From positions 1 through 36,792 of the forward strand of contig JBDTZG010000052.1 of NCBI GenBank assembly GCA_040005235.1: 36,792 nt of DNA, written 5' to 3'. Origin of the DNA: Acidobacteriota bacterium. Lineage in GTDB: Bacteria; Acidobacteriota; Thermoanaerobaculia; Multivoradales; UBA5704. Of the stretch, positions 8,447 through 25,361 are shown piece after piece; position 1 is the first letter of the stretch, and every line of letters begins with the position of its first letter. A model generated the notes under the pieces. The model worked only from the letters and a program-made list of their open reading frames with translations, ran no database searches and was not told where the DNA came from. The translations under genes were made by a program, and so were the position numbers.

Positions 8447-10744
8447 TTAGAGATGGACCTTGCGGCTGACGACGATCGCATCGCCGTCGGAAATCATCTC
8501 CGCCGGCCGGGCTGCGACGAGCGCACGGGCCGCGGGGGGGAGTCCGAGCGACCGGTCGACCAGATAGCCGTCGATCGGCCCAGAGCTGCCGACGACCAGA
8601 TCGAGCACGATCCCCTCGGGCGGCGTCGACAGGCACTGGAACGTAAACCAGTCGCCACGCTGCGGAATTTTGCCTTCCTTGGTCATCGGAATTTCCGTAT
8701 CCCCCATCCGCGCCGAGCGGATGTTCGCGGCAACCGGCACATGGAGGGTGACCGAGGGGGCGCCGCGCGGCGAGACGAGCCGCAGGGAGAGATGCCGGCC
8801 GTCCGGACGCGGCTCGTCGACCAGCACCTCGATCGTCGGAACGACCAAAGGAAGGGGCGGAGCCGGGGCCACGGCGGCCTTCGCCTGAGGGAAAGACCAG
8901 GCGAACGGCTGGCCGATGGCAAACGGCGCGGCGGCGGTGAGCGTAGCGGGGAGCGGACGCCCCGGCGCGAGATCGCCCGCGAGAACCCAGCGGCCGGCGC
9001 CGGCATCCGAATCGAGATGATAGGTCAGAGTCATCCGCTGCGGTGCCGCGGCGGAGGCGCGGGTGGTGGCCGGCACCAGGAACGCCGTCACCACGCCGAC
9101 CAAGGCGATCGCGCCGATCCAGAGCGCCGGACGGCGCGCGTCGGCGTGGAGCGGCGCGAGCGGCATGGCGATCAACCCGAAGACCGCCGCGATCACCGCG
9201 AGGCCCGGCGTGCCGAGACCGGCAAAGAAGAGCAGGGCCAGCGGCGCCCAAAGGATTCCGACCACCGCGAGCGGCAGCAAGGCCGCCAGCCACGGCCGGC
9301 CCGGAAGCCCAAACCAGCCGGCGAGGCCCGCAACCAAAGAAGGGATCACGAACAGGTAGCTTGCGCCGGGCACCAGCACCGCGGTCGCGACGCCGAGGAT
9401 CGACCAGGCGAGCCACACCCCCGTCCACACCCCCGCCGCCCGCGCGTTTCGGGAGACGGCCGCGAGCACGCCCAACACGGCCAAGGCGGCCAAAGCGCCT
9501 ACCGACAGAAGAAGCGCGCCGGCCTCCGCCGGCCAGGCGACCGCCAATCCGCCCGCGATTCTTTCCGCATTGACGAACACGAGGCCGATGCCGGCCGCCG
9601 CCAAAATCGAGGCCAACGCTCCGACCAGCGCCAGGATCGAGCCCCCGGGGCTCGCGACGCGGGCGCCCCAGGCCTTGCGGCAGGCGAGTCCCACGGCGAG
9701 CAGCGCCAGCACCGCGAGCGGCAAGGTCGCAGCGGCGGGCCAACGAACGATGCCGAGCGAGAGCACGTCGAAGAACACGGCGGGACCCTGCTTCGGCCGG
9801 TCGAGCTGAGCCCCGGCGAGCGCTCGCGCCAGCTCGAAGGCGCTCTCCCCCATGTGCTGCAAGCTCGCGGGCGAGGCGTTGGCGAGGCTGTCGAGCGGCG
9901 TATGGTAGCGCTCGGCGTCGCCGATCAGGGCGAAGTTGAACCCCGGCATCCCTTCGCGATTGAAGACGGTGTAGTCGGTGTCGTTCGGCAGCCGTTCGTA
10001 GATCGAAACGAACACCGACGAGGCGACCGGTCGCGAAACCGCATGGGCGAACAGCGGAATCCACGCCCCGTTGGTGTGCTGGGTCTGGAACATCAAACCG
10101 GGACCGGTCGTGCCCCGCGCCTCCAGGTTGATCACCACTCCGACCTCTTTGGCCGTCGGCGTCCGAACGAACGCTTCGGCGCCCAACAGGCCGGCCTCCT
10201 CGCCGTCGTCGACCAGGAAGATCACCGGGTTGTCGGGCGCCGGACCGGCCTTCATCAGGCGCGCGATCTCCAGAATAGCGGCGACGCCCGTCAGGTCGTC
10301 GGAAACGCCCGGACCGCTCGGCACCGAATCGTAGTGGGCCGACAGCAGAACCGCCTTGGGAGTAGACGCCCCCGCCTCGGTGTTTGCGGCGAGACGGGCC
10401 ACGACGTTTTGGACCGTAGTGCAGGGGCCGCCCAGGCGACAGACGAAACCGGGAACCACCTCAGGCTCGTAGCCGAGGCGTCGAAACGCCAGGAGCACCC
10501 GCTCCCGCGTGGCGGCGTTGGCCGCGCTGCCCACCGGATGCGGCTCGCCGTTGCCGACCAGCTCCGCGAGCACCGCCCCCGCCCGCCGGGCGGAAAACTC
10601 CATCTCCGGCGCATCCACAGGTTTGGCCGCAGGAGGCCGGAGCCGCACCACCGCCAGGCCGAACAGCGCCGCGAGAAGCAGCAACCCCACGATCAGCCCG
10701 CCGCTCCCCTTCCTCGAATTCGCCTCGCCGCCCGGCTCGACCAT
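8447..10744 (-). CDS. M28 family membrane metallopeptidase (ERMP1-like architecture)
   Basis: LLSAHYDS, GVSDDLTGVA, DGEEAGLLGA, NLEARG, TDY and YHTPLD zinc-ligand motifs, followed by about 8 TM helices and a C-terminal soluble domain. Confidence 0.9.
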   Translation of the reverse strand: MVEPGGEANSRKGSGGLIVGLLLLAALFGLAVVRLRPPAAKPVDAPEMEFSARRAGAVLAELVGNGEPHPVGSAANAATRERVLLAFRRLGYEPEVVPGFVCRLGGPCTTVQNVVARLAANTEAGASTPKAVLLSAHYDSVPSGPGVSDDLTGVAAILEIARLMKAGPAPDNPVIFLVDDGEEAGLLGAEAFVRTPTAKEVGVVINLEARGTTGPGLMFQTQHTNGAWIPLFAHAVSRPVASSVFVSIYERLPNDTDYTVFNREGMPGFNFALIGDAERYHTPLDSLANASPASLQHMGESAFELARALAGAQLDRPKQGPAVFFDVLSLGIVRWPAAATLPLAVLALLAVGLACRKAWGARVASPGGSILALVGALASILAAAGIGLVFVNAERIAGGLAVAWPAEAGALLLSVGALAALAVLGVLAAVSRNARAAGVWTGVWLAWSILGVATAVLVPGASYLFVIPSLVAGLAGWFGLPGRPWLAALLPLAVVGILWAPLALLFFAGLGTPGLAVIAAVFGLIAMPLAPLHADARRPALWIGAIALVGVVTAFLVPATTRASAAAPQRMTLTYHLDSDAGAGRWVLAGDLAPGRPLPATLTAAAPFAIGQPFAWSFPQAKAAVAPAPPLPLVVPTIEVLVDEPRPDGRHLSLRLVSPRGAPSVTLHVPVAANIRSARMGDTEIPMTKEGKIPQRGDWFTFQCLSTPPEGIVLDLVVGSSGPIDGYLVDRSLGLPPAARALVAARPAEMISDGDAIVVSRKVHL

Positions 10745-11825: not shown

Positions 11826-12287
11826 CTACTCCGGGAGTTCCTCCGTGTCCAGGGTACAGGGATTGCCCGTTCCCGGGCCACAGTGCCCGCAATCCGACGA
11901 ATGGACGGGAATGCAGACAATTGGGGAGATATCGATAAAAACTGGAGCCGTGGCGTAGAACGCGTCGAAGGTCGCGCGATAGTACCGGCCCTCTTGGCTT
12001 GGGGCGCGAACGTATCCAACGTATTCGGTGATGCCGATCCAGGGTCCCCCGGCGATCCGAAAATTTCCGTCGTCGAGGAGGAAATGAGTCCCCTGGATGA
12101 CAGTGTTGAATGAGACCGTGCCGGAGGCTGTGAACAAAGTAACAACGCTGGAGGAATCGACGGCGCGGACCCGTTGGTTCGCGCCGACGGAACCTCGAAA
12201 GAACTCACCGAAAGCGAAAGCGGGGGTCAGTCCCCAAGCGAGGCAGCAGGCGATCAAAATCCAGGATCCCAACCAGGAGGCTTTCAT
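11826..12287 (-). CDS. Secreted hypothetical protein with a Cys-rich C-terminus
   Basis: GGAGG RBS and TAATG overlap with the upstream gene; signal peptide MKASWLGSWILIACCLAWGLTPAFA; C-terminus CIPVHSSDCGHCGPGTGNPC. Confidence 0.65.
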   Translation of the reverse strand: MKASWLGSWILIACCLAWGLTPAFAFGEFFRGSVGANQRVRAVDSSSVVTLFTASGTVSFNTVIQGTHFLLDDGNFRIAGGPWIGITEYVGYVRAPSQEGRYYRATFDAFYATAPVFIDISPIVCIPVHSSDCGHCGPGTGNPCTLDTEELPE

Positions 12288-12961
12288 TAGCATCCTCCTG
12301 CGAGGTAGCGAAGGTGGTCGGCGGAGACGTTGCTGTCGACGGAGGTACCATAGACGGAGACACTCAGCGTGCCGGGCGCAATGGCCTCGTAGAGGAAGCG
12401 ATCGAAGGCCTCCCTGCCGAAGGTCGCGCGCGCCGTCTCGAGGCTTTGGGCGTGTAACCGACAATCCTTTTTGCCGAACTCTTCGGCTTGGCGGTCGATT
12501 TCCGCCCGCCTCCCGGGATGCGCAGTCTGATACTCCTTCGCGAGCGCTCGCTGCGCCTTGATCGAATCCAGATAGGGCCGGGCGACTTGTTCGAGTCGCT
12601 GCCAGAAGTCGTTGTCGATCCGTATTCCGCCGGACTTGGACTGATATTCGTCGCGAAATCCCTGGCTGGCCTCGGGCAAGGGAGAGAAGGCCCGCATGAG
12701 GAGGTCTTGATAGAGCTCAATGGGTAGGAAGAGTTCGGGATTCTTGTCGCCTTGTACGACGTCGCGGCCTGCGGCATCTAAGGCGCCTTCCGTCTCCGCG
12801 ACGTAGGCGTTTTCGCGGGAGCGCATGGAAGAAGGGTCATAGCGTTTGGAGATTCGCTCCTCATCGGTCCACTTCCATGGCGGCCTCGGAGAATCCTGGC
12901 CGCGGGCTGCCGCAGCGAGCAACAGACCCGTTATGAGCAAAGCTGATGAAATCATGCGCAT
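12287..12961 (-). CDS. Secreted hypothetical helical protein
   Basis: AAGGAG RBS before ATG 12961; signal peptide MRMISSALLITGLLLAAAARG; motif-like VVQGDKNPELFLPIELY; ends LRYLAGGC. Confidence 0.75.
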   Translation of the reverse strand: MRMISSALLITGLLLAAAARGQDSPRPPWKWTDEERISKRYDPSSMRSRENAYVAETEGALDAAGRDVVQGDKNPELFLPIELYQDLLMRAFSPLPEASQGFRDEYQSKSGGIRIDNDFWQRLEQVARPYLDSIKAQRALAKEYQTAHPGRRAEIDRQAEEFGKKDCRLHAQSLETARATFGREAFDRFLYEAIAPGTLSVSVYGTSVDSNVSADHLRYLAGGC

Positions 12962-13378
12962 GAAGCGATCTCCTTTTTCAGGGTTCAGGACCGATGGATC
13001 AAGCGACACGAGGGCTGAGAAAAGCTGTTTGATCTTCATACGCATCAAGGTCCTCCTTCGTTGCTGGCGCCGACGAGACGGCAGGCATTTGTAAAGTCGC
13101 CATTTTGTGCACACGACTGTGGCTTGAACCCGCCGCGGGAACCAGCTGTGGTGCGACTCTGAGGAATACTTGGTCAGATTGATCTTTATCTGGCGTCATG
13201 GTGACGCCACTTTGCCCGAGCGAGAAAGCGAAGTCAAGAGGAATCTATCGGGCCTTGAGAATTCTTTGCCGACGTGCCAAAAAGAAAGGGCAGCGGTGCG
13301 CCCTGGGAGGGTACTGGCCGTCGCCAAGACCACACGGGCGGGGCAAGACCGCCGTCCGTGTGGTGAGATTTTCCTTCC

Positions 13379-14692
13379 CTACCGCCCCTCCGCCCGCAAC
13401 GCCGCCCCCGCCGCCTGGACCATCGCGACAGTCGCCTGTTCGCCCCGCGCAGCTTCTTGAAGCAGCAGCAAACCGGCGAGCGCCTCGCGGCGGATCTTCA
13501 GGGCCTTGAAGGTAGAGACCGCGTCGTCGACACCGCAAGCGACTTCGCGGAACTTGCCGCGACGAATCCAGATCGCGCAGAGGTCGAGGGTGACCAGGCT
13601 GGCTTGAAAGAAAAGGCTGCGATCTTCGAATCCGGTCCTGACGGCGCGCAGGTAGGCATCGGCACAGGGAAGGTTGCCGAGGCCGGCTTCGATCTGCGCC
13701 TCCACCCATTGGCGACGGAGAAGATCCGTCTCGTCGCCCCATTCCTTATAAAGGGGCTCGCAGCGATCCAGCCAGGCGCGAGCGGTTTCGAAATGGCCGA
13801 GTCGGGTGGTGCAGAATAATGTGTTGTGGAAGGCTGCGAGCGCGAGGTCAGGATCACGAGCGAGGTCCAGAAGCTCGAGGCTGCGCAGGAAGAAGCCCAA
13901 TGCAGCGAAGTTATCTTGGCGGTGCTCGGCGATCAAACCGCGTTCCAAACAAATACGGCCCGCGATGTGATGTTCGCCGTGTTGTTCCCGAAATCCCTGC
14001 AGATAGGCGAGTAGGTCTTCGGCCTCTGCGAGTCGGCGCGATGCCATTAGAAATTGTGCCGCCCCTTCGGCCGAGTCGAGGAGCGGCATCAGCTCGGTCG
14101 CCGCCGCCACAGCCCCGTGGAATGCCCCCTCGGCACTGGCGAAATCGCCAGTCAGGCGCCGGGCGTTCGCCAACTCGGTCCAAGTTTCGCTTCGGAGGTT
14201 GTCAACGACCCCTTCGGGATGCATCTCCGGTTTCAGCGAACCGGCGAAGCTGACAGAGAGCACCGCCGCAAACAGGCAATATTCGGGGTCCTCACGGCGC
14301 TCCCCCCGTGCTTCGCCGAGCCAAGCCTTGGCGCGAGCGAACAGAAGCATCTGGGTGGGAGGAGGAAGTTCGTCCAGGTGGACCAGACCTTCCACTTCAT
14401 CCTCCGCCTGCTCTCTCGCCTCGGCCAGCTCGACGCCGATGGCGAGCGACTTCTTTATCGCGCCACGCAGGCGGAAGTCCTGAATATTGCCCAGGGCCAC
14501 TGCCCGCTCGTCGTCATTGGCCACGGGAAGATCCACGATCGCTGAAGGCCAGGGGAGCTTTCCCGCCAGCTCGCAGCAGTCTGGACATCTCTGGGCCAGA
14601 TGCTTGACGACCTCAAGAAGCCGACCGCCTTCAAGCTGCTGCGCCCAGAGATCCGTGATCTCGGCAGGAATCAAGTGCGGGGTGTCCGACAT
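13379..14692 (-). CDS. TPR-like helical repeat protein with N-terminal HxxxxCxxC motif (paralog A)
   Basis: GGAGG RBS; KHLAQRCPDC; TPR-like helices (ELANARRLTGDFASAEGAF, RLGHFETARAWL); C-terminal ASLVTLDL...IRREALAGLLLL shared with the 21462-22793 protein. Confidence 0.85.
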   Translation of the reverse strand: MSDTPHLIPAEITDLWAQQLEGGRLLEVVKHLAQRCPDCCELAGKLPWPSAIVDLPVANDDERAVALGNIQDFRLRGAIKKSLAIGVELAEAREQAEDEVEGLVHLDELPPPTQMLLFARAKAWLGEARGERREDPEYCLFAAVLSVSFAGSLKPEMHPEGVVDNLRSETWTELANARRLTGDFASAEGAFHGAVAAATELMPLLDSAEGAAQFLMASRRLAEAEDLLAYLQGFREQHGEHHIAGRICLERGLIAEHRQDNFAALGFFLRSLELLDLARDPDLALAAFHNTLFCTTRLGHFETARAWLDRCEPLYKEWGDETDLLRRQWVEAQIEAGLGNLPCADAYLRAVRTGFEDRSLFFQASLVTLDLCAIWIRRGKFREVACGVDDAVSTFKALKIRREALAGLLLLQEAARGEQATVAMVQAAGAALRAEGR

Positions 14693-14945
14693 GTCGCCTC
14701 CCAGAGAGTGCGCGCGACCGCTTCGCATTCCATTGTCTCAAGTTCGAGAGAGAATTGTCGCACGAAAGCCCAGCCACGGAAACCCCGAATCTGCCGACAT
14801 CTACGGATCGAAATGTAGAGACGCCCCAGTCCTAAACCACGAACGAACCGGGTCCACCATCGTCGGGGCGTCTCCTCTTCGCGCCGCCACGAACCCACTG
14901 GATTCAAAGCCGACGGGAAGCATTTAGTTAGGCGGCAGGCGTCGG

Positions 14946-15269
14946 CTACTGTAGGCCCCACGGACTGATCTGGCTGCCCTCGGCGTGCGGTAAGGGACTG
15001 ACCAGTCCCCAGGGATTGATGCCGGCGCCCTCCTCGGCCCAAACCTGCCGCAGCGCACCCGGGGGGGCGGTCCCATCGACCGTGGGCGCAGGCTTTCCCC
15101 ACGGACTAATCTCAGACCCCGTCTCGCCCCAGAGGTGGTTGATCCAATCAAACGGCGAAAAACGATCGAAAAAGCTCCAACCTGCAGTCGACGCAGCGGC
15201 GGCGGGCGTTGCGCTGAAGAGGAGGGCGGCGAGGGTAGCTATGGCGAGCAGGCGGTATGAACGTGGCAT
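14946..15269 (-). CDS. Small secreted pre-pro-peptide with three repeated cores (ETGSEISPWG, EEGAGINPWG, AEGSQISPWG)
   Basis: AAGGAG RBS; Sec signal MPRSYRLLAIATLAALLFSATPAAA; Trp-rich amphipathic segment; three GxxI[SN]PWG repeats at about 15096-15125, 15006-15035 and 14955-14984. Confidence 0.85.
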   Translation of the reverse strand: MPRSYRLLAIATLAALLFSATPAAAASTAGWSFFDRFSPFDWINHLWGETGSEISPWGKPAPTVDGTAPPGALRQVWAEEGAGINPWGLVSPLPHAEGSQISPWGLQ

Positions 15270-15600
15270 GCGAAGCTCCTTCCCATCCGCGGTGCGCACC
15301 GGCGGCCGGAATGGCCCCCGCGCCCGCGGGGGCAACGCGTTTGCGTTGCTTCTACTGGCGCGAGAGCATGGCAAACTTTTGAGGTTCGTGAACGTTTCGC
15401 CGAAATATTTTTATCCGCGATCCATTCGACGAAACTCCAGGATTCTCCAGGCTGGATCAGCGTAGAAAGAACGCCGCTTTGAAAGCAAATTTGTGGCATC
15501 TGGCGCCTAAATTTACCAATCGGATGAACAGAAAAGCTTGCCTTTCCCGCGCCGCCGCCGCCTACATGTGCATACCGTGCACGGGAAGGCGCCGCACGCC

Positions 15601-15630
15601 TTGACACATCGCGGCTTCCCGCTCGACAAT
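15601..15630 (+). promoter_or_regulatory. Sigma70-like promoter, probably driving a leaderless transcript
   Basis: TTGACA (15601-15606), 18 nt spacer, GACAAT (15625-15630); ATG 6 nt later; no Shine-Dalgarno sequence. Confidence 0.55.
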
Positions 15631-15636
15631 CGCGGC

Positions 15637-16311
15637 ATGGCTCCGGCAAAAAAGACGCCCCCTTCCTCCTCGCCCCCCCATGGGGAAGCGCCCGGCGAGT
15701 CGCTACTTCCCTCTACGGATAGCGCCGGAACCGCAGAGGCAGAAGCGATCGGAGGTCCGGCGAAGCGCAAGCGGGCTCGCCGGAAAGCCGCGGCCGAAGC
15801 GCAAATCGAAGCGCAAGCCGAGGCGCCGGTCCGTCGCGGCCGGCCGCGCAAAGGGGAGGAGAAGCGCCAAGAAGTCGCTCGACCGGACGAGATGCAGCGC
15901 GCCATCACCTTGCTCGACCAGCTGGTGGAGGCGTTCGGCGGCTCGCGGCGCCATGTCGACAAGCTGCTCGGCACCGGCCGCAGCCGGACCAGCCAAGTGC
16001 TATCCGGGCGCTTGGAGCTCAAGTTCCAGCACATCCTGGACGTGCTCGAAGTGTTGGGCATCGAGACCCGGGCGTTCTTCGAAGTGCTGTACGGCGAAGA
16101 AGAGCACACTCCCTTCCCCGCTCCGCTCGCCGTGGTCTATCGCCAGAAGCTCCGAGCCATGGGCGCACCGGCGGAGATCGCTGCACTCGGACCGAAGGCG
16201 TCCGAGCCAACCGCCCTCCCCCACTTCCTCACCGAGGAAGAAGTCCGCCAGTTGATCGACCGTCGCCTGTTCGAAGCGTTCAGCCAGGTGATGCCGAAGA
16301 AGCCCGCGTAA
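15637..16311 (+). CDS. XRE-like HTH regulator with a disordered N-terminus and an AT-hook
   Basis: RRGRPRK AT-hook, then an HTH-like segment SRRHVDKLLGTGRSRTSQVLSGRLELKFQHILDVLEVLGI. Confidence 0.75.
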   Translation: MAPAKKTPPSSSPPHGEAPGESLLPSTDSAGTAEAEAIGGPAKRKRARRKAAAEAQIEAQAEAPVRRGRPRKGEEKRQEVARPDEMQRAITLLDQLVEAFGGSRRHVDKLLGTGRSRTSQVLSGRLELKFQHILDVLEVLGIETRAFFEVLYGEEEHTPFPAPLAVVYRQKLRAMGAPAEIAALGPKASEPTALPHFLTEEEVRQLIDRRLFEAFSQVMPKKPA

Positions 16312-16438: not shown

Positions 16439-16744
16439 ATGACCAATAAACAAAGCGTAGATCGCCACGCTTCGCCACCGCGCCTGGCGCCCGCCGTCTG
16501 GTCGCGCCGTTCGGTCGGGCGCCGCCTGGCTCGGCTTCGACGCAGCCGAAAGTGGACTCAAGAGCGGGTCGCCGCCGCCGTCGGCGTCGATCGGGGCACG
16601 ATCAGCCGCTGGGAGCGGGGCGTCATCCTGCCGAGCGTCGATCGGCTTGGCCAACTCTCACGCCTGTTCGAGATCCCATTCGCGGACCTCTTTGCGGTGG
16701 CGCCAAAGAAATCGCACTCTGATCCCTCCGAGGAAACGAAGTGA
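16439..16744 (+). CDS. XRE family HTH transcriptional regulator
   Basis: GRRLARLRRSRKWTQERVAAAVGVDRGTISRWERGVILPSVDRLGQLSRLFEI is a canonical HTH_3 domain. Confidence 0.92.
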   Translation: MTNKQSVDRHASPPRLAPAVWSRRSVGRRLARLRRSRKWTQERVAAAVGVDRGTISRWERGVILPSVDRLGQLSRLFEIPFADLFAVAPKKSHSDPSEETK

Positions 16745-18063
16745 CCTGCCCGCCGCGACGCGAGCTGGAGCGGGCGATCGCAGATCTGCCGGCGGTCGAT
16801 CGGGCCGGGTTGCTCTACGTTCTGACCTGCCGCTCTTGCCGCGCCATCGCGCGTTGACGGCTCGCAGACGAGGAAGCGAACCGCCACCCCCGACACCGCC
16901 GGGCGGACGGTACCGAACCCCGCTACGACCGCGCGTTCTCCTTGCTCCCGATCGAAATCGTCGACCGACTGGCGATCGAGGGCGCTTCGGCCGCGCTGTT
17001 CGACCTGCTCTCCCTCCCTTCGTCCGAGCGCTGGCGGCGGCTGGAGGCGGGCGAAATACCGTCCAATCCCCCCCTCGCCGAAGCGCTGATGGCGCTCGCC
17101 GAGCAAAGTCACGCCGAACCGGCCGAGATCGTCGACCTGTCGAGCCTTGGTTTACGCCTTGCCCACCAGGCGGTGGAAAAGGATGGGCGCCGGCCGATCG
17201 AAGGATTAGAAAGCCGCTATTGGATCGTCCAAGCTCGCATCGACCGCCTGCTGGGAGCTCCTGACCAGGCGCTCGAGATTCTCAGCCTCGCCGCCGGCCT
17301 TCTGCCGGAATCGGTGGCCGCCCCGGAGCGCGCCGCGTATTGCCGCGAGGCGGCCCGCTGTTTCGAGCAACTCGGGCGGTTTGACGAGGCACTGGCGCTG
17401 TACGACCGAGCCGCCGAGGTGCTCCGGCCGTTCGGCCAAACGGTGGAAATCGCCAATCATTTGCTCCACTCGGGGAGGCTTGCCGCCGCACAAGGCGATC
17501 CGCACCTGGCCCTCCTCCGCCTCGCCGAGGCAGACAGAGAGTTCGGCAACGCGGTCGAGCCCTCCACGTCCGCCGCCCTTTGGCTAGGCCTTGCCGCCGC
17601 CTACGACGGCCTCGCTGAACCGCTTCGTGCCCATTGGGCTCTCGAACGTGCGCGCCGCCGGATCGCAGCCGTCGAGAACCCCCGTCTTCGCCTGCCGCTA
17701 CTCGCTGAGCTCGGGCGAGCGCTCGCCGCGGTGGGTCGCTTCGACGAAGCGTTGGCACACCTCGCCGAGGTGCGCAAAGCGGCAACCGATGGCCCGCCCT
17801 GGGAGGTTCTGCTCGCGAATCTCGACGAAGTGGGGGCAATGCTCGCCGCCGGGTTTGCTCTCGCACCACCCGAGCGACTGGCAGAAATGAAAACCGCGAT
17901 CGGCCGGCTGGACCTTCATGGCGACCTTCGCGCCGCTCTCGATACCGGGATCGCCGAGCTGGAATCGGGACAAGCGGGGTCACCCGGGATTCGGGCGCTC
18001 ACCCGCCACCTCCGCCACGCCCGTTGGAATCCCCTCTTGCCGTTCCGCCCGGAGGCCGGCTGA
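16741..18063 (+). pseudogene. TPR-like protein with N-terminal CxxC (paralog B), interrupted by an in-frame TGA at 16855-16857
   Basis: GTG at 16741 overlaps the XRE stop (GTGA): MTCPPRRELER...LYVLTCRSCRAIAR*RLADEE...RYDRAFSLLPIEIV, continuing in frame into the 16942-18063 TPR ORF (QLGRFDEALALYDRAAE, AVGRFDEALAHLAE). Confidence 0.75.
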
Positions 18064-18088: not shown

Positions 18089-18530
18089 CGTTCCCGAGCT
18101 TCCCACAAGCCGTTGTACGTCCGGGAACGGCGTTTTATCCGAGAAAATGATTCCTGAGGCTCCAGGATCATTTTTTAACTCCCAGAATCGTTTTTTAACT
18201 CCGGGAATCATATTCCCGAGTCGGATTTTGATTCTGGAAGTTAAAAAACGATTCTGGAGCCTCGGGAATCAAATTTTAAGCTGGAGATCCGATTCTCGAA
18301 GCTCGGGAATCATTCTTTACCGTTCGTTTCGATTCCTGGAGTTAAAAAATGATTTTCCTGGCTCCAGAATCATTCTCGGGGGTAAATTTCGATTCTCGGA
18401 GCTCAAAAACGATTCCCCGGCCTCGCGTAGGTTTCCCGACCGTAAATTTGGATTTCCCCAGCTAAAAAACGAATCTCGTGCTTCGCCGAACGTTCTCCAA
18501 GCTCCACGGGCGTTCTCCAGTTCCGTTTCT
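18089..18530. repeat. Degenerate ~20-bp periodic quasi-palindromic tandem array with A/T tracts
   Basis: GATTC/CATTC/CGTTC-like motifs at 18149, 18169, 18189, 18209, 18230, 18250, 18291, 18311, 18331 ... 18511; 60-bp higher-order repeats starting at 18301, 18361 and 18421; inverted match between 18148-18180 and 18239-18271. Confidence 0.85.
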
Positions 18531-21461: not shown

Positions 21462-22793
21462 CTAGTTCCCCGCTCCGGCGCCGGGCTGGAATCGAACCTC
21501 GGGCTGGTAACGAGCCTCCTGCAGGTAATCCCGCAGATCGCGGACCAGGGCCTCGGTCAGGATCTCCTGCTGCACCGCTTCCTGGAATAAGCGCAAGGCC
21601 GCGAGAGCCTCGCGGTGAATGTCCTGCGAAGTGAAGATGGGCAACATCTCCCCGATCAATTGCCGCACGACCTCCGGCTGGCCCGCGCGCAAGGAAGCCA
21701 GGGCTAAGTCGAGCGAAACCAGCGCCGCGTCGTACCCTACTCCTGCCGCAATAAACCCGTCGCGGACCGCCGCAAAATGATTCCTTGCGACGTCTAGGTC
21801 TCGCTCTGCGGCGGCAATCCGCCCGCGAATCCAGCCATATCGCAGGTGCATCAAGGGCTCCCCGATCGAGGCATGTCGCGATTCGTCCTGATCGAGAATA
21901 TTCCTTGCAGCTCGCAAATCCTTCGTATCGCACAACGCCCGAGCCAAATTGATCCGAGCCCAAAAATACAGTTTCAGATCGTCAGCTGCCGCCGCGTTAT
22001 GTGCGACTTCGCGAGCTATGCGCAAGGCCTTGAGAGGCTGCCCCGATTCCAGGAACAATAGAGAACGTGTGACGTCAACCCGAGCGACATCGGCCAGCGC
22101 GCCCACCAGGCCATAGAGAATCTTCGCTCGGTCCAGCAACCTCTCAGCCTCAGCGAAGCTGCGGCGGTTCAAGAAAAATGCCCCCTCGAGGTGGTCAATC
22201 CGCGCGATCACTGATGGATCGGAGACGTTCGAAAGCTGGGTCAACGCACGGCTCCGATCGAGAAGCTCACGGGCACCTCTGCTATCGGACCTCAGCCGCT
22301 GTGCGTTCGCCATCTCCGCCAGAGCTAGTGGAACCAGACCGTTGGTGAGCTCCGAACCGGTGAGGCGGTCAGCAACGTGGAAAGCCAAGTCGGCAAAATG
22401 AAAAGCGACCGCATGGTCCGAATGCACGTAACGCCGCGATTCGGCCAACAGGAGGCGAACCAAGGCCGCACTGCGGTACCTAACGCGAGAACGAACAACG
22501 CGAGCCAACCGCCTTTCCGATTCGAGGGACAGAAGCAGCCGCAAATCTTCGGCCGCCCCTACCTCCGCCGCAGCGATCCGTTTGAGCTGGTCCTCGAAGA
22601 AGCCGGGAAGGCGTGCCTCGAAATCGCTTCTCACCGCGATCATCTTCTCATTCTCCCAGGCCTCCCACTCCGCGGCGCAAGTCGGGCACAAACAACGAAG
22701 GTGCTCCAGACCGATACGGACCAGGACCTGAGGCTCGATCTCTCCCTTGGCAATCGCACGCAACAATTCACGACTCAGGTGGATGTCTCGCAT
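21462..22793 (-). CDS. TPR-like helical repeat protein with N-terminal HxxxxCxxC motif (paralog C)
   Basis: IHLSRELL...EHLRCLCPTC; AEMANAQRLRSD; TPR-like repeats; C-terminal YDAALVSLDLA...IFTSQDIHREALAALRLF homologous to paralog A. Confidence 0.88.
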   Translation of the reverse strand: MRDIHLSRELLRAIAKGEIEPQVLVRIGLEHLRCLCPTCAAEWEAWENEKMIAVRSDFEARLPGFFEDQLKRIAAAEVGAAEDLRLLLSLESERRLARVVRSRVRYRSAALVRLLLAESRRYVHSDHAVAFHFADLAFHVADRLTGSELTNGLVPLALAEMANAQRLRSDSRGARELLDRSRALTQLSNVSDPSVIARIDHLEGAFFLNRRSFAEAERLLDRAKILYGLVGALADVARVDVTRSLLFLESGQPLKALRIAREVAHNAAAADDLKLYFWARINLARALCDTKDLRAARNILDQDESRHASIGEPLMHLRYGWIRGRIAAAERDLDVARNHFAAVRDGFIAAGVGYDAALVSLDLALASLRAGQPEVVRQLIGEMLPIFTSQDIHREALAALRLFQEAVQQEILTEALVRDLRDYLQEARYQPEVRFQPGAGAGN

Positions 22794-22914
22794 CCTCCTC
22801 CCCCTCATTGGAGATTGGCCATGTCTTACTGTGACAGTGCGCAAAACTCAAGTTTTGGGACAGTCAAAGAGCGGGCAGATGGTCAAAAGTGGCCTGCCCG
22901 CCCTTTCTCAGCCC

Positions 22915-23157
22915 TCAGCTAACGCACTTTTGAACCCCGGTCGGATCGGCTCCACAGCCCGCGTCCACCGTTGGCGGCGTATTTCCAGCGTCTTCGGCAG
23001 CTCCGAACAGGGCCGACACGAGCTCGACGAGGCAACTCCAAGGGTTCCATCCGGAGCTTCTGAAACTCGTGCCGCGAGCCGGAAGAGCACCGGCTGCCGC
23101 GGGGACCATCAAGGCGAGGACCAAAAGCGCTGCGACCCAACGAAATCCATGACGCAT
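22915..23157 (-). CDS. Small secreted pre-pro-peptide with core DAGCGADPTG
   Basis: AGGAGG RBS; signal peptide MRHGFRWVAALLVLALMVPAAAGA; Trp-containing amphipathic segment GWNPWSCLVELVSALFG; PPTVD linker; 80 aa. Confidence 0.8.
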   Translation of the reverse strand: MRHGFRWVAALLVLALMVPAAAGALPARGTSFRSSGWNPWSCLVELVSALFGAAEDAGNTPPTVDAGCGADPTGVQKCVS

Positions 23158-23315
23158 AGCAGAAACCCTCCTAAGCACGAGCGCGATCTCTCCTGCCCCC
23201 CAATAGGGCGGAGGCCGCATTTGGTACTTTTGGCTGCGCTCGTTATGGGTACGCTACGCCTGGGTTGCCTCGAAAGGAAGTAGCCAAAGAAATCGAGCAA
23301 AAGTTATTGCCGAAA

Positions 23316-24719: not shown

Positions 24720-24748
24720 TTGACTTACGCCTCTGTTACGCCTATCGT
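24720..24748 (+). promoter_or_regulatory. Sigma70-like promoter containing a TTACGCCT direct repeat
   Basis: TTGACT (24720-24725), 17 nt spacer, TATCGT (24743-24748); TTACGCCT at 24725 and 24736. Confidence 0.5.
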
Positions 24749-24809
24749 TCTTCCTGTCACGAGGACCCAATACCGAACTGGCATGAGGTCCCCGCGGGAG
24801 GCAATTCCA

Positions 24810-25361
24810 ATGAACGACCGCTCCTCTCCTCTCTTCGATCGGCTCGGTCGAGCCGTGCGCTGGCTGCGCGAGCGTCAGGGCAAGAAACAGTACCTCGTGG
24901 CGGATACGGCGGGCGTCACGAAAGGCATGCTTTCCGCCTACGAAACCGGCCGACAGAAGCCATCTCTCGAAACGCTGGAAAAGCTGCTGACGGCGCTCGG
25001 CTGCGATCTTCACGATCTGCACAACGCGATTCAGATCGTCAACGAGCGTCCCGAGGGAATTCGCCGCTCCGGCTTCGGCGGCTTCGGCTCTCTCGGAAGC
25101 CTCGGCGCCTTCGAGCTCTACCCCACCGGCACGCCGGGTCCGCGGCTGGAAATCGCCGAACCGCACCCACCGGGCAGCCAGGGCGGCTATGGCGGCCCTG
25201 ATGGCGACCTGCTCGATGTCGGCCGGCTGCTCGGCATCGATCGCGCGCTCGAAGAGGAAGAGCGGCGGGCGCTCGAAGAGATCGTCGCCGGCTGTCACCG
25301 GCTGGTACGCCACCTGCATCGCGCCGTCGAGGAACGCAGCAGCCCCCGAACCGCGAGCTGA
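24810..25361 (+). CDS. XRE family HTH transcriptional regulator
   Basis: GGGAGG RBS; LGRAVRWLRERQGKKQYLVADTAGVTKGMLSAYETGRQKPSLETLEKLL. Confidence 0.9.
   Translation: MNDRSSPLFDRLGRAVRWLRERQGKKQYLVADTAGVTKGMLSAYETGRQKPSLETLEKLLTALGCDLHDLHNAIQIVNERPEGIRRSGFGGFGSLGSLGAFELYPTGTPGPRLEIAEPHPPGSQGGYGGPDGDLLDVGRLLGIDRALEEEERRALEEIVAGCHRLVRHLHRAVEERSSPRTAS

Follow-up and report, generated by a model that had tools for sequence, protein, structure and literature searches.

In the 36,792-nucleotide contig JBDTZG010000052.1 of an Acidobacteriota bacterium (assembly GCA_040005235.1; hereafter the window), a minus-strand gene at 14946–15269 encodes a secreted peptide of 107 residues that repeats the motif G-x-x-I-[SN]-P-W-G three times. 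The next gene on the same strand encodes a cytoplasmic protein with a putative zinc-type anti-sigma domain at its N-terminus and a predicted tetratricopeptide repeat (TPR) superhelix behind it. We read the two as a propeptide and its cytoplasmic receptor, a signalling pair that would follow the logic of the RRNPP systems with an anti-sigma output and in a diderm host, and we give this reading roughly even chances. Cleavage of the precursor into several peptides, their re-import and their binding are inferred, as is everything after export. A preliminary description of the peptide gene had compared it with multi-copy Phr-type peptides. That comparison has gained substance: the TPR protein encoded directly downstream is cytoplasmic, and among bacterial structures it is most similar to Rap, NprR and PlcR. 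The cassette consists of the following features.

14946–15269, minus strand: gene for the 107-residue secreted repeat peptide P0001, from the open reading frame (ORF) and its translation, stop codon included
15192–15269, minus strand: signal peptide, residues 1–26, assigned by inspection; helix 4–18 in the model
15129–15191, minus strand: Trp-rich pro-region, residues 27–47 (W-S-F-F ... F-D-W-I-x-x-L-W), conserved; helices 32–36 and 39–47 in the model
15096–15119, minus strand: core 1, GSEISPWG, residues 51–58
15006–15029, minus strand: core 2, GAGINPWG, residues 81–88
14955–14978, minus strand: core 3, GSQISPWG, residues 98–105, ending two residues before the C-terminus
15276–15283, minus strand: Shine-Dalgarno-like GGAAGGAG, 6 nt before the ATG, in a conserved alignment column
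15313–15349, minus strand: leader or promoter-proximal element, hairpin-capable GCAACGC-loop-GCGTTGC followed directly by CCCCGCGGGCGCGGGGG, 43 nt before the ATG
13379–14692, minus strand: partner gene, 437 residues, cytoplasmic, starting at M13 of a 449-residue frame; model pLDDT 85.9
14546–14692, minus strand: putative ZAS-type anti-sigma domain of the partner, residues 1–49 (H6, H31, C36, C39), from a profile match to ChrR
13382–14440, minus strand: TPR superhelix of the partner, residues about 85–437, presumed peptide-binding sensor; family-profile match 1–342 of 342, E 1.7e-100
13287–13304, minus strand: terminator-like hairpin and T-run after the partner gene, weak (2 sites found, 2.5 expected in shuffles)

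The peptide is a precursor-like secreted product with three cores

The ORF runs from an ATG at 15267–15269 to a TAG at 14946–14948, that is, 107 codons and the stop. By inspection, its N-terminus is a Sec-type signal sequence with R3 and R6 in the n-region, a 14-residue hydrophobic core and A-A-A ahead of the predicted cut, and the layout is identical in all 32 paralogues that we find in the genome. The pro-region places its tryptophans at W31 and in the run W42-I-N-H-L-W47, and the spacers between the cores are rich in Pro and Ala. This copy contains no Cys and no acidic D-P-N-G. Its AlphaFold model (pLDDT 54) shows the signal helix, the two short helices of the pro-region and no fold after residue 47, as would be expected of a carrier of linear motifs.

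The repetition of the cores is kept at the peptide level only, because any two of the eight-codon cores have just 16–17 of 24 nucleotides alike, with synonymous differences at Gly, Ile and Pro codons, and Tandem Repeats Finder detects no DNA repeat in 14800–15400. The proposal that the cores are conserved as protein and do not stem from DNA slippage is borne out by these counts. A six-frame translation of the full genome (6.22 Mb) contains PWG 879 times in 12.26 million residues, a frequency from which about 0.008 would be expected by chance per 107 residues. P0001 is the only open frame of fewer than 400 residues genome-wide that has three; two other frames have two. The peptide has no match in Pfam, NCBIfam or PADLOC, and its scores in the ESM Atlas are all at most 0.77, to unnamed clusters only.

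The peptide belongs to a large family from one acidobacterial lineage

A single-sequence search of the peptide's own genome (140 contigs) returned weak paralogues. When a hidden Markov model (HMM) was iterated over all six-frame ORFs of that genome, it converged on 31 ORFs at E < 0.01; one more at E 0.016, which also lies in the window (22915–23220), brings the number of copies to 32. The window ORF has E 8e-20 against the family HMM and was ranked first by a profile search (E 6e-33). All 32 paralogues are 82–134 residues long and carry a signal peptide, a "W..L..LW" helix and 1–4 cores. We define this unnamed DPNG-repeat family by a signal peptide, a W..L..LW helix, 1–5 cores of the form G-x-x-[ILV]-[DEN]-P-x-G and a TPR-family neighbour. 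The signal peptide, the helix, the cores and the neighbour are all found for the window ORF, which is a divergent member: the family core consensus is G-(C)-x-[ILV]-D-P-[NSDH]-G-[RK]-(C/P), and the window copy has S/N in place of D and W in place of N/S/D/H.

Among 1.84 billion sequences, a profile of 23 members matched 1805 cluster representatives at E ≤ 0.001 and 323 at E ≤ 1e-10. Where members already have a name it is "hypothetical protein", and their source is Thermoanaerobaculia. Core statistics were computed for the 230 short proteins in a set of 234, leaving out four of at least 731 residues. Three cores is the number in 112 of the 230 (range 0–5). The D-P of x-D-P-x-G is present in 633 of 681 cores and a Cys after the first Gly in 556, while W stands between P and G in 16. 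The last core lies exactly 4 residues from the protein end in 132/226 proteins. In two of the long secreted proteins, P0153 (731 residues) and P0201 (783 residues), unrelated N- and C-terminal domains enclose about thirty x-[ILV]-D-P-N-G-[RK] units, a use of the motif that is either polyprotein-like or structural.

Within the window's taxonomic family, 87 of 92 genomes contain matches to the profile, a single genome having as many as 34. When the phylum was sampled evenly, matches appeared in both genomes of that taxonomic family (G000 and G009) and in none of 399 genomes of other families, a count that is not proof of absence since 12 candidates were scored per genome. Among the genomes searched, the peptide family is found only in one family of Acidobacteriota (Thermoanaerobaculia). 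Literature searches, which left out subscription journals and supplements, found no published description of it.

The partner joins a putative anti-sigma domain to a TPR superhelix

The partner is one of many paralogues that its TPR family has in the genome. Its start at M13 was set by its orthologues, which begin M-[PS]-D-T-P-H-L. This start lies 253 nt downstream of the end of the peptide gene, and no signal peptide or membrane helix is seen in the protein by inspection. Searches of Pfam, NCBIfam and PADLOC gave nothing or a sub-threshold TPR match for the partner itself. Across 25 aligned members of its family, TPR_12 is detected in 21 and HTH_3, a helix-turn-helix (HTH) domain, in 7, the window partner not being among the latter.

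The N-terminal profile (positions 1–49) matches ChrR (2q1z_B/2z2s_B, E 4.3e-5) from residue 1 and, with a higher E-value, DdvA (8rlz_A) and 3hug_B (both E 0.014). HMMER aligns H6, H31, C36 and C39 of the partner with H6, H31, C35 and C38 of ChrR, with a one-residue gap; in ChrR these four residues bind zinc. In 17 N-terminal sequences of the partner family, H31, L32, C36 and C39 are invariant and H6 is nearly so.

The partner was modelled with good confidence (pLDDT 85.9, pTM 0.72), most of the TPR part having pLDDT above 90. The model contains a poorly defined linker at 45–110, a long helix at 60–100 and a regular helical repeat at 114–436, with 16 helices after residue 114. We compared it with known structures using Foldseek and VIA-align. 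The best bacterial matches are RapI (Z 20.0), NprR-NprX (19.6), the Rap of phage phi3T (19.2), the Rap of pLS20 (18.4) and PlcR-PapR (17.2), and the Rap, NprR and PlcR alignments span about 210–300 residues each.

Peptide and partner genes travel together

Throughout the genome, peptide genes of this family keep company with TPR genes. A TPR-family match lies within 4.5 kb of 30 of the 32, and a near-full-length TPR partner within 700 nt of 28. The same arrangement appears at 17 loci from ten other genomes, a biased sample in that the loci were chosen by similarity to the window peptide: all 17 have a TPR neighbour in the 1.5-kb flank. Fourteen of these partners have an anti-sigma-type N-terminus and three have an HTH, and the three with an HTH are those of the three Cys-loop peptides. 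The identity matrices of peptides and partners are correlated (Mantel r 0.56, not reached in any of 2000 permutations), and we therefore conclude that the cassettes duplicate and diverge as units.

Two cassette layouts can be distinguished. In the window type, the peptide gene lies upstream of, and co-directional with, a partner without an HTH. In the HTH type, an XRE HTH is mounted on the same TPR sensor and the peptide, usually of the Cys-loop kind, is convergently wedged between two regulators.

Some partner paralogues directly follow the gene of an extracytoplasmic function (ECF) sigma factor. On contig C103 (11850–16841), three ECF sigma genes occur in alternation with a pair of anti-sigma-like/TPR genes and a single peptide gene. 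An alternating order of sigma and anti-sigma genes is the usual one. The genome has a single SBP_bac_5 (Opp/Dpp-type) binding-protein gene, accompanied by two permease genes (contig C8, 64196–67907) and lacking an adjacent ATPase gene. An HTH-type peptide cassette lies 3.7 kb away.

Orthologous loci conserve the cores and the gene order

Orthologues of the peptide in five congeneric genomes are 84, 62, 61, 52 and 43% identical to it. The partner has diverged less than the peptide (84, 74, 72, 73 and 58% identity in the same five genomes), and the order of a divergent gene, p257, then peptide, then partner is kept in 5/5 orthologous loci. The conserved unit extends beyond the bare core to [LV]-W-[AG]-E-x-G-x-x-I-[SN]-P-W-G, and in its family-wide form to [LV]-W-[AG]-E-x-G-x-x-I-x-P-x-G. 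The W-x that the preliminary description had noticed before two of the cores is real, and turns out to be part of this longer unit.

We compared regions pairwise among the five better orthologues, leaving out the one from genome G006. Pairwise identity is 0.62, 0.72 and 0.57 in the three cores versus 0.51 and 0.37 in the spacers. Homologues thus keep the cores, in the congeneric orthologues as across the large family, apart from G006. At the G006 locus (contig C124, 2436–4177) the peptide cores have decayed and the His/Cys (zinc) motif of the partner has been lost by deletion; peptide and partner may have decayed jointly there.

A genus-specific leader precedes the peptide gene

The 110 nt upstream of the peptide ATG are nearly invariant in the five genomes, whose proteins are just 43–84% identical. 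Within them CCCCGCGGGCGCGGGGG is invariant and is followed by a conserved CCGCGG and the Shine-Dalgarno sequence. The exact 18-mer has five sites in the genome; at each of them a peptide gene of this subtype follows closely and a gene of the p257 family is nearby. A 26-nt element, made up of a hairpin arm and the invariant GC-rich palindrome, was searched more widely with two mismatches allowed. It has 36 sites, in 8/8 genomes of the genus, and zero in 84 genomes of ten other genera; the reversed control also gave zero. At 26 of 30 fetched sites a peptide-family ORF follows within about 50 nt (15–50 nt).

The first hairpin has fixed arms and a loop of variable length (4–10 nt). RNAalifold, run on 21 leader copies, proposes 19 pairs with 0 compensatory changes, and 14800–15700 contains no Rfam match at the E-value threshold. 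Because there is no covariation, the leader may equally be an RNA structure or a protein-binding DNA operator, two forms that the alignment does not tell apart. A sigma-70 scan found no promoter-like site on the peptide's strand, and no terminator-like site was found between peptide and partner.

Comparison with known signalling systems

In the RRNPP(A) systems of Bacillota (Rap-Phr, NprR-NprX, PlcR-PapR, AimR-AimP), as here, the gene for a Sec-exported propeptide adjoins that of a cytoplasmic, all-helical TPR receptor. Both kinds of system also have many paralogous pairs per genome, and in both the TPR sensor is constant and the N-terminal output domain varies. Moreover, several motif copies in one precursor recall the tandemly duplicated pheromones of that group. 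Passages of one RRNPP paper document several pheromone copies per propeptide in the Rap, NprR, PlcR and AimR subfamilies (PMC9765709), and an extract of another describes two phage Rap systems in which multi-copy propeptides yield several active peptides (PMC11343458). Of the features by which RRNPP(A) members are known, the C-terminal TPR superhelix (Z 17–20) and the adjacent secreted propeptide gene are both present in the window, whereas an N-terminal HTH is not.

There are differences as well. No sequence-level relation to RRNPP(A) was detected among the best 60 of 157 PDB matches, the host is a diderm acidobacterium, the output here is a putative zinc anti-sigma domain instead of an HTH or the Rap helical bundle, and the repeated unit is a turn-forming G-x-x-I-x-P-x-G, often closed by a Cys pair in paralogues. 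A large RRNPP survey covers Firmicutes only (PMC10075063). Our searches, with subscription journals and supplements outside their reach, found no paper that joins RRNPP and Acidobacteria; the related work was Gram-positive only. Compared with RRNPP, the diderm Acidobacteriota host, the turn-forming repeated motif and, in this subtype, the anti-sigma output would be novel.

The second point of comparison is the ZAS anti-sigma factors, such as ChrR of Rhodobacter sphaeroides, RslA and DdvA. The partner resembles them in its approximately 50 N-terminal residues, which match ChrR with the His and Cys residues aligned. The C-terminal sensor of ChrR is a cupin and other ZAS factors have a membrane anchor; the partner, in contrast, has a TPR superhelix of about 350 residues, along with a different motif spacing and no adjacent sigma gene in the window. 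We know of no anti-sigma factor that takes a genetically encoded secreted peptide as its input.

A model for the cassette

If the pair does signal, we imagine the following course. Sec would export the precursor, and extracellular trimming would leave one or more short peptides around G-x-x-I-[S/N]-P-W-G. These would accumulate and re-enter the cell, for which the single Opp/Dpp-type importer of the genome is a candidate route, and would bind in the concave groove of the partner's TPR superhelix. Binding could alter the hold of the anti-sigma domain on its target (an ECF sigma factor from another locus, or possibly p257) and so reset transcription, including that of the peptide-partner operon with its genus-specific leader. 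Three cores per precursor might raise the signal dose or supply ligand variants, as described for duplicated Phr propeptides.

More tentatively, and with the odds somewhat against it, we suggest that one family of diderm Acidobacteriota has evolved, independently of Bacillota, a large set of private peptide "languages" in which cytoplasmic TPR receptors sense Sec-exported, multi-epitope propeptides and drive either HTH or anti-sigma domains, and a genus-specific structured leader closes an autoregulatory loop. On that reading the window peptide would be the first known pheromone to act through an anti-sigma factor and hence on an ECF sigma regulon.

Peptide quorum sensing through cytoplasmic receptors is treated as a Gram-positive trait. 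Should these cassettes prove to signal, peptide communication would be richly developed in a major group of soil bacteria and would have to operate across an outer membrane. In this subtype its output would be control of a sigma factor and not a DNA-binding domain. The approximately 1800 sequence clusters offer material for studying the joint divergence of peptide and receptor specificities, and the window pair lends itself to experiment, with short synthetic peptides on one side and one soluble 437-residue protein on the other.

Points against the signalling reading, and its rivals

A number of observations weigh against a peptide-receptor pair, and we gather them here. The first set concerns the partner. 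Its top structural match is the eukaryotic LGN/Pins TPR (Z 23–24 over 290–325 aligned residues at 12–15% identity), from polarity proteins whose superhelix, according to the structure titles, wraps extended peptides in an unrelated context. This match therefore shows only a peptide-clasping TPR superhelix fold. The TPR fold is generic and helical repeats score high overall; when a profile of 25 partners was run against PDB sequences (157 matches at E up to 1), the best 60 of the 157 were generic TPR proteins, with no RRNPP receptor among them. The modelled fold is thus of the peptide-clasping type, from which membership of the RRNPP family does not follow. As for the output domain, its zinc motif is spaced H-x4-C-x2-C, one residue above the canonical H-x3-C-x2-C, Pfam zf-HC2 matches just 1 of 25 partners, and there is no ECF sigma gene in the 36.8 kb of this contig, with 35 Sigma70_r2 matches elsewhere in the genome. 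Finally, the Mantel congruence speaks for linkage and not for binding, since co-duplication alone can produce it.

The second set concerns the peptide. An outer membrane is present, so a returning peptide would have to cross it twice. The helix of the pro-region equals the cores in conservation (pairwise identity 0.69). Selection thus acts on the cores but not on them alone, and the protein may have a role while still intact. No protease cleavage site can be recognised between the cores, either in the peptide or across its family, and Pro usually stands at the second position after a core. The claim that several signals are cut from one precursor therefore stands in part: the product is secreted, non-globular and precursor-like, while the missing cleavage site, the Pro near the core end and the equally conserved helix tell against the cutting itself.

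The conserved helix and the lack of a cleavage motif would suit a mature protein of about 80 residues that stays intact outside the cell in a structural, adhesive, metal-binding or antimicrobial role, the TPR protein then being a mere regulator at the level of transcription that does not bind it. P0153 and P0201, in which about thirty x-I-D-P-N-G-[RK] units sit in a larger protein, have a structural look that fits the same idea. We nevertheless consider it unlikely. No fold is predicted for the mature part, and the TPR superhelix is of a peptide-binding type. Nor does a structural role readily explain up to 34 matches per genome with each copy diverging alongside its own TPR paralogue. A metal-binding role in particular sits poorly with a window copy that lacks both Cys and the acidic D-P-N-G.

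Alternatively, the cassette could report its own export and not cell density: the TPR protein would bind the repeats of the unexported precursor, like the TPR chaperones of type III secretion with their substrates, and export would free or load the anti-sigma domain. A Sec signal would be expected to drive rapid export and leave a small cytoplasmic pool, about thirty diversified pairs per genome suggest private specificities and not a single export sensor, and the many family members that end right at the last core fit C-terminal mature peptides better. For these reasons we judge such a switch decidedly improbable, even though it would need neither passage through the outer membrane nor an importer, both proteins are made in the same cytoplasm and probably come from one transcript (given the lack of a terminator-like site between them), and FlgM is a known precedent for coupling an anti-sigma factor to substrate export.

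The preliminary description had also likened the gene product to multi-core precursors of ribosomally synthesized and post-translationally modified peptides (RiPPs). In such a case Trp or other residues would be modified by enzymes from genes elsewhere in the genome, and the result would be a natural product and not a signal. The short cores that recur between variable spacers do resemble such precursors, and Cys pairs flank the core in most family members (556/681 cores), but the window copy has no Cys, its signal peptide is a cleavable Sec one and not a RiPP leader, its conserved neighbour is a regulator and not an enzyme, and Pfam scans of the 34 open frames in the window agree with that description in finding no radical-SAM, cyclodehydratase, lanthipeptide or similar enzyme, so that we hold this origin to be very improbable. 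A Bowman-Birk-like protease-inhibitor loop, considered for the Cys-closed paralogues, was rejected for the Cys-free window copy.

Other genes of the window

The remaining features lie on both strands around the cassette.

15538–16311, plus strand: p257, divergent from the peptide gene, with a basic disordered N-terminus and a conserved 129-position C-terminal domain with an XRE-like HTH
16439–16744, plus strand: XRE-family HTH protein of 101 residues, Pfam HTH_3 E 3e-15, syntenic in 3/5 orthologous loci
16741–18063, plus strand: second zinc-motif/TPR gene, with an in-frame TGA at 16855–16857; TPR profile E 1.4e-43; compared with its orthologues in genomes G003 and G002
21462–22793, minus strand: partner of the second peptide, an anti-sigma-like/TPR paralogue
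22915–23220, minus strand: second, weaker member of the peptide family, 101 residues with one Cys-flanked core, family HMM E 0.016

Of the 15 members of the p257 family in this genome, 6 lie close to a peptide cassette. The window member is syntenic in 5/5 orthologous loci, and library matches to the family are weak. The second zinc-motif/TPR gene has its TGA where G003 has AGA, and a Tyr where its orthologues have the motif His. From these differences it may be either a pseudogene or a TPR-only protein that restarts at TTG 16942. Farther along, the 101-residue peptide and its partner form a second cassette (21462–23220, minus strand), with an XRE HTH gene 1.5 kb off (24720–25361, plus strand).

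Downstream of the first partner lie p275 (12287–13114) and p212 (11826–12464), which together cover 11826–13114 on the minus strand and encode secreted proteins without known domains. Copies of the two, 78% and 71% identical, stand beside another cassette (contig C124, 9969–11107). As cargo or processing enzyme we considered p275, p212 and an M28 peptidase (8447–10744), and set all three aside for lack of synteny across the five orthologous loci. Just after the second zinc-motif/TPR gene, the stretch 18120–18500 has a low GC content (0.55 versus 0.65) and holds a mosaic array of approximately 60-nt units, spaced 41, 60, 60 and 60, with many internal inverted repeats.

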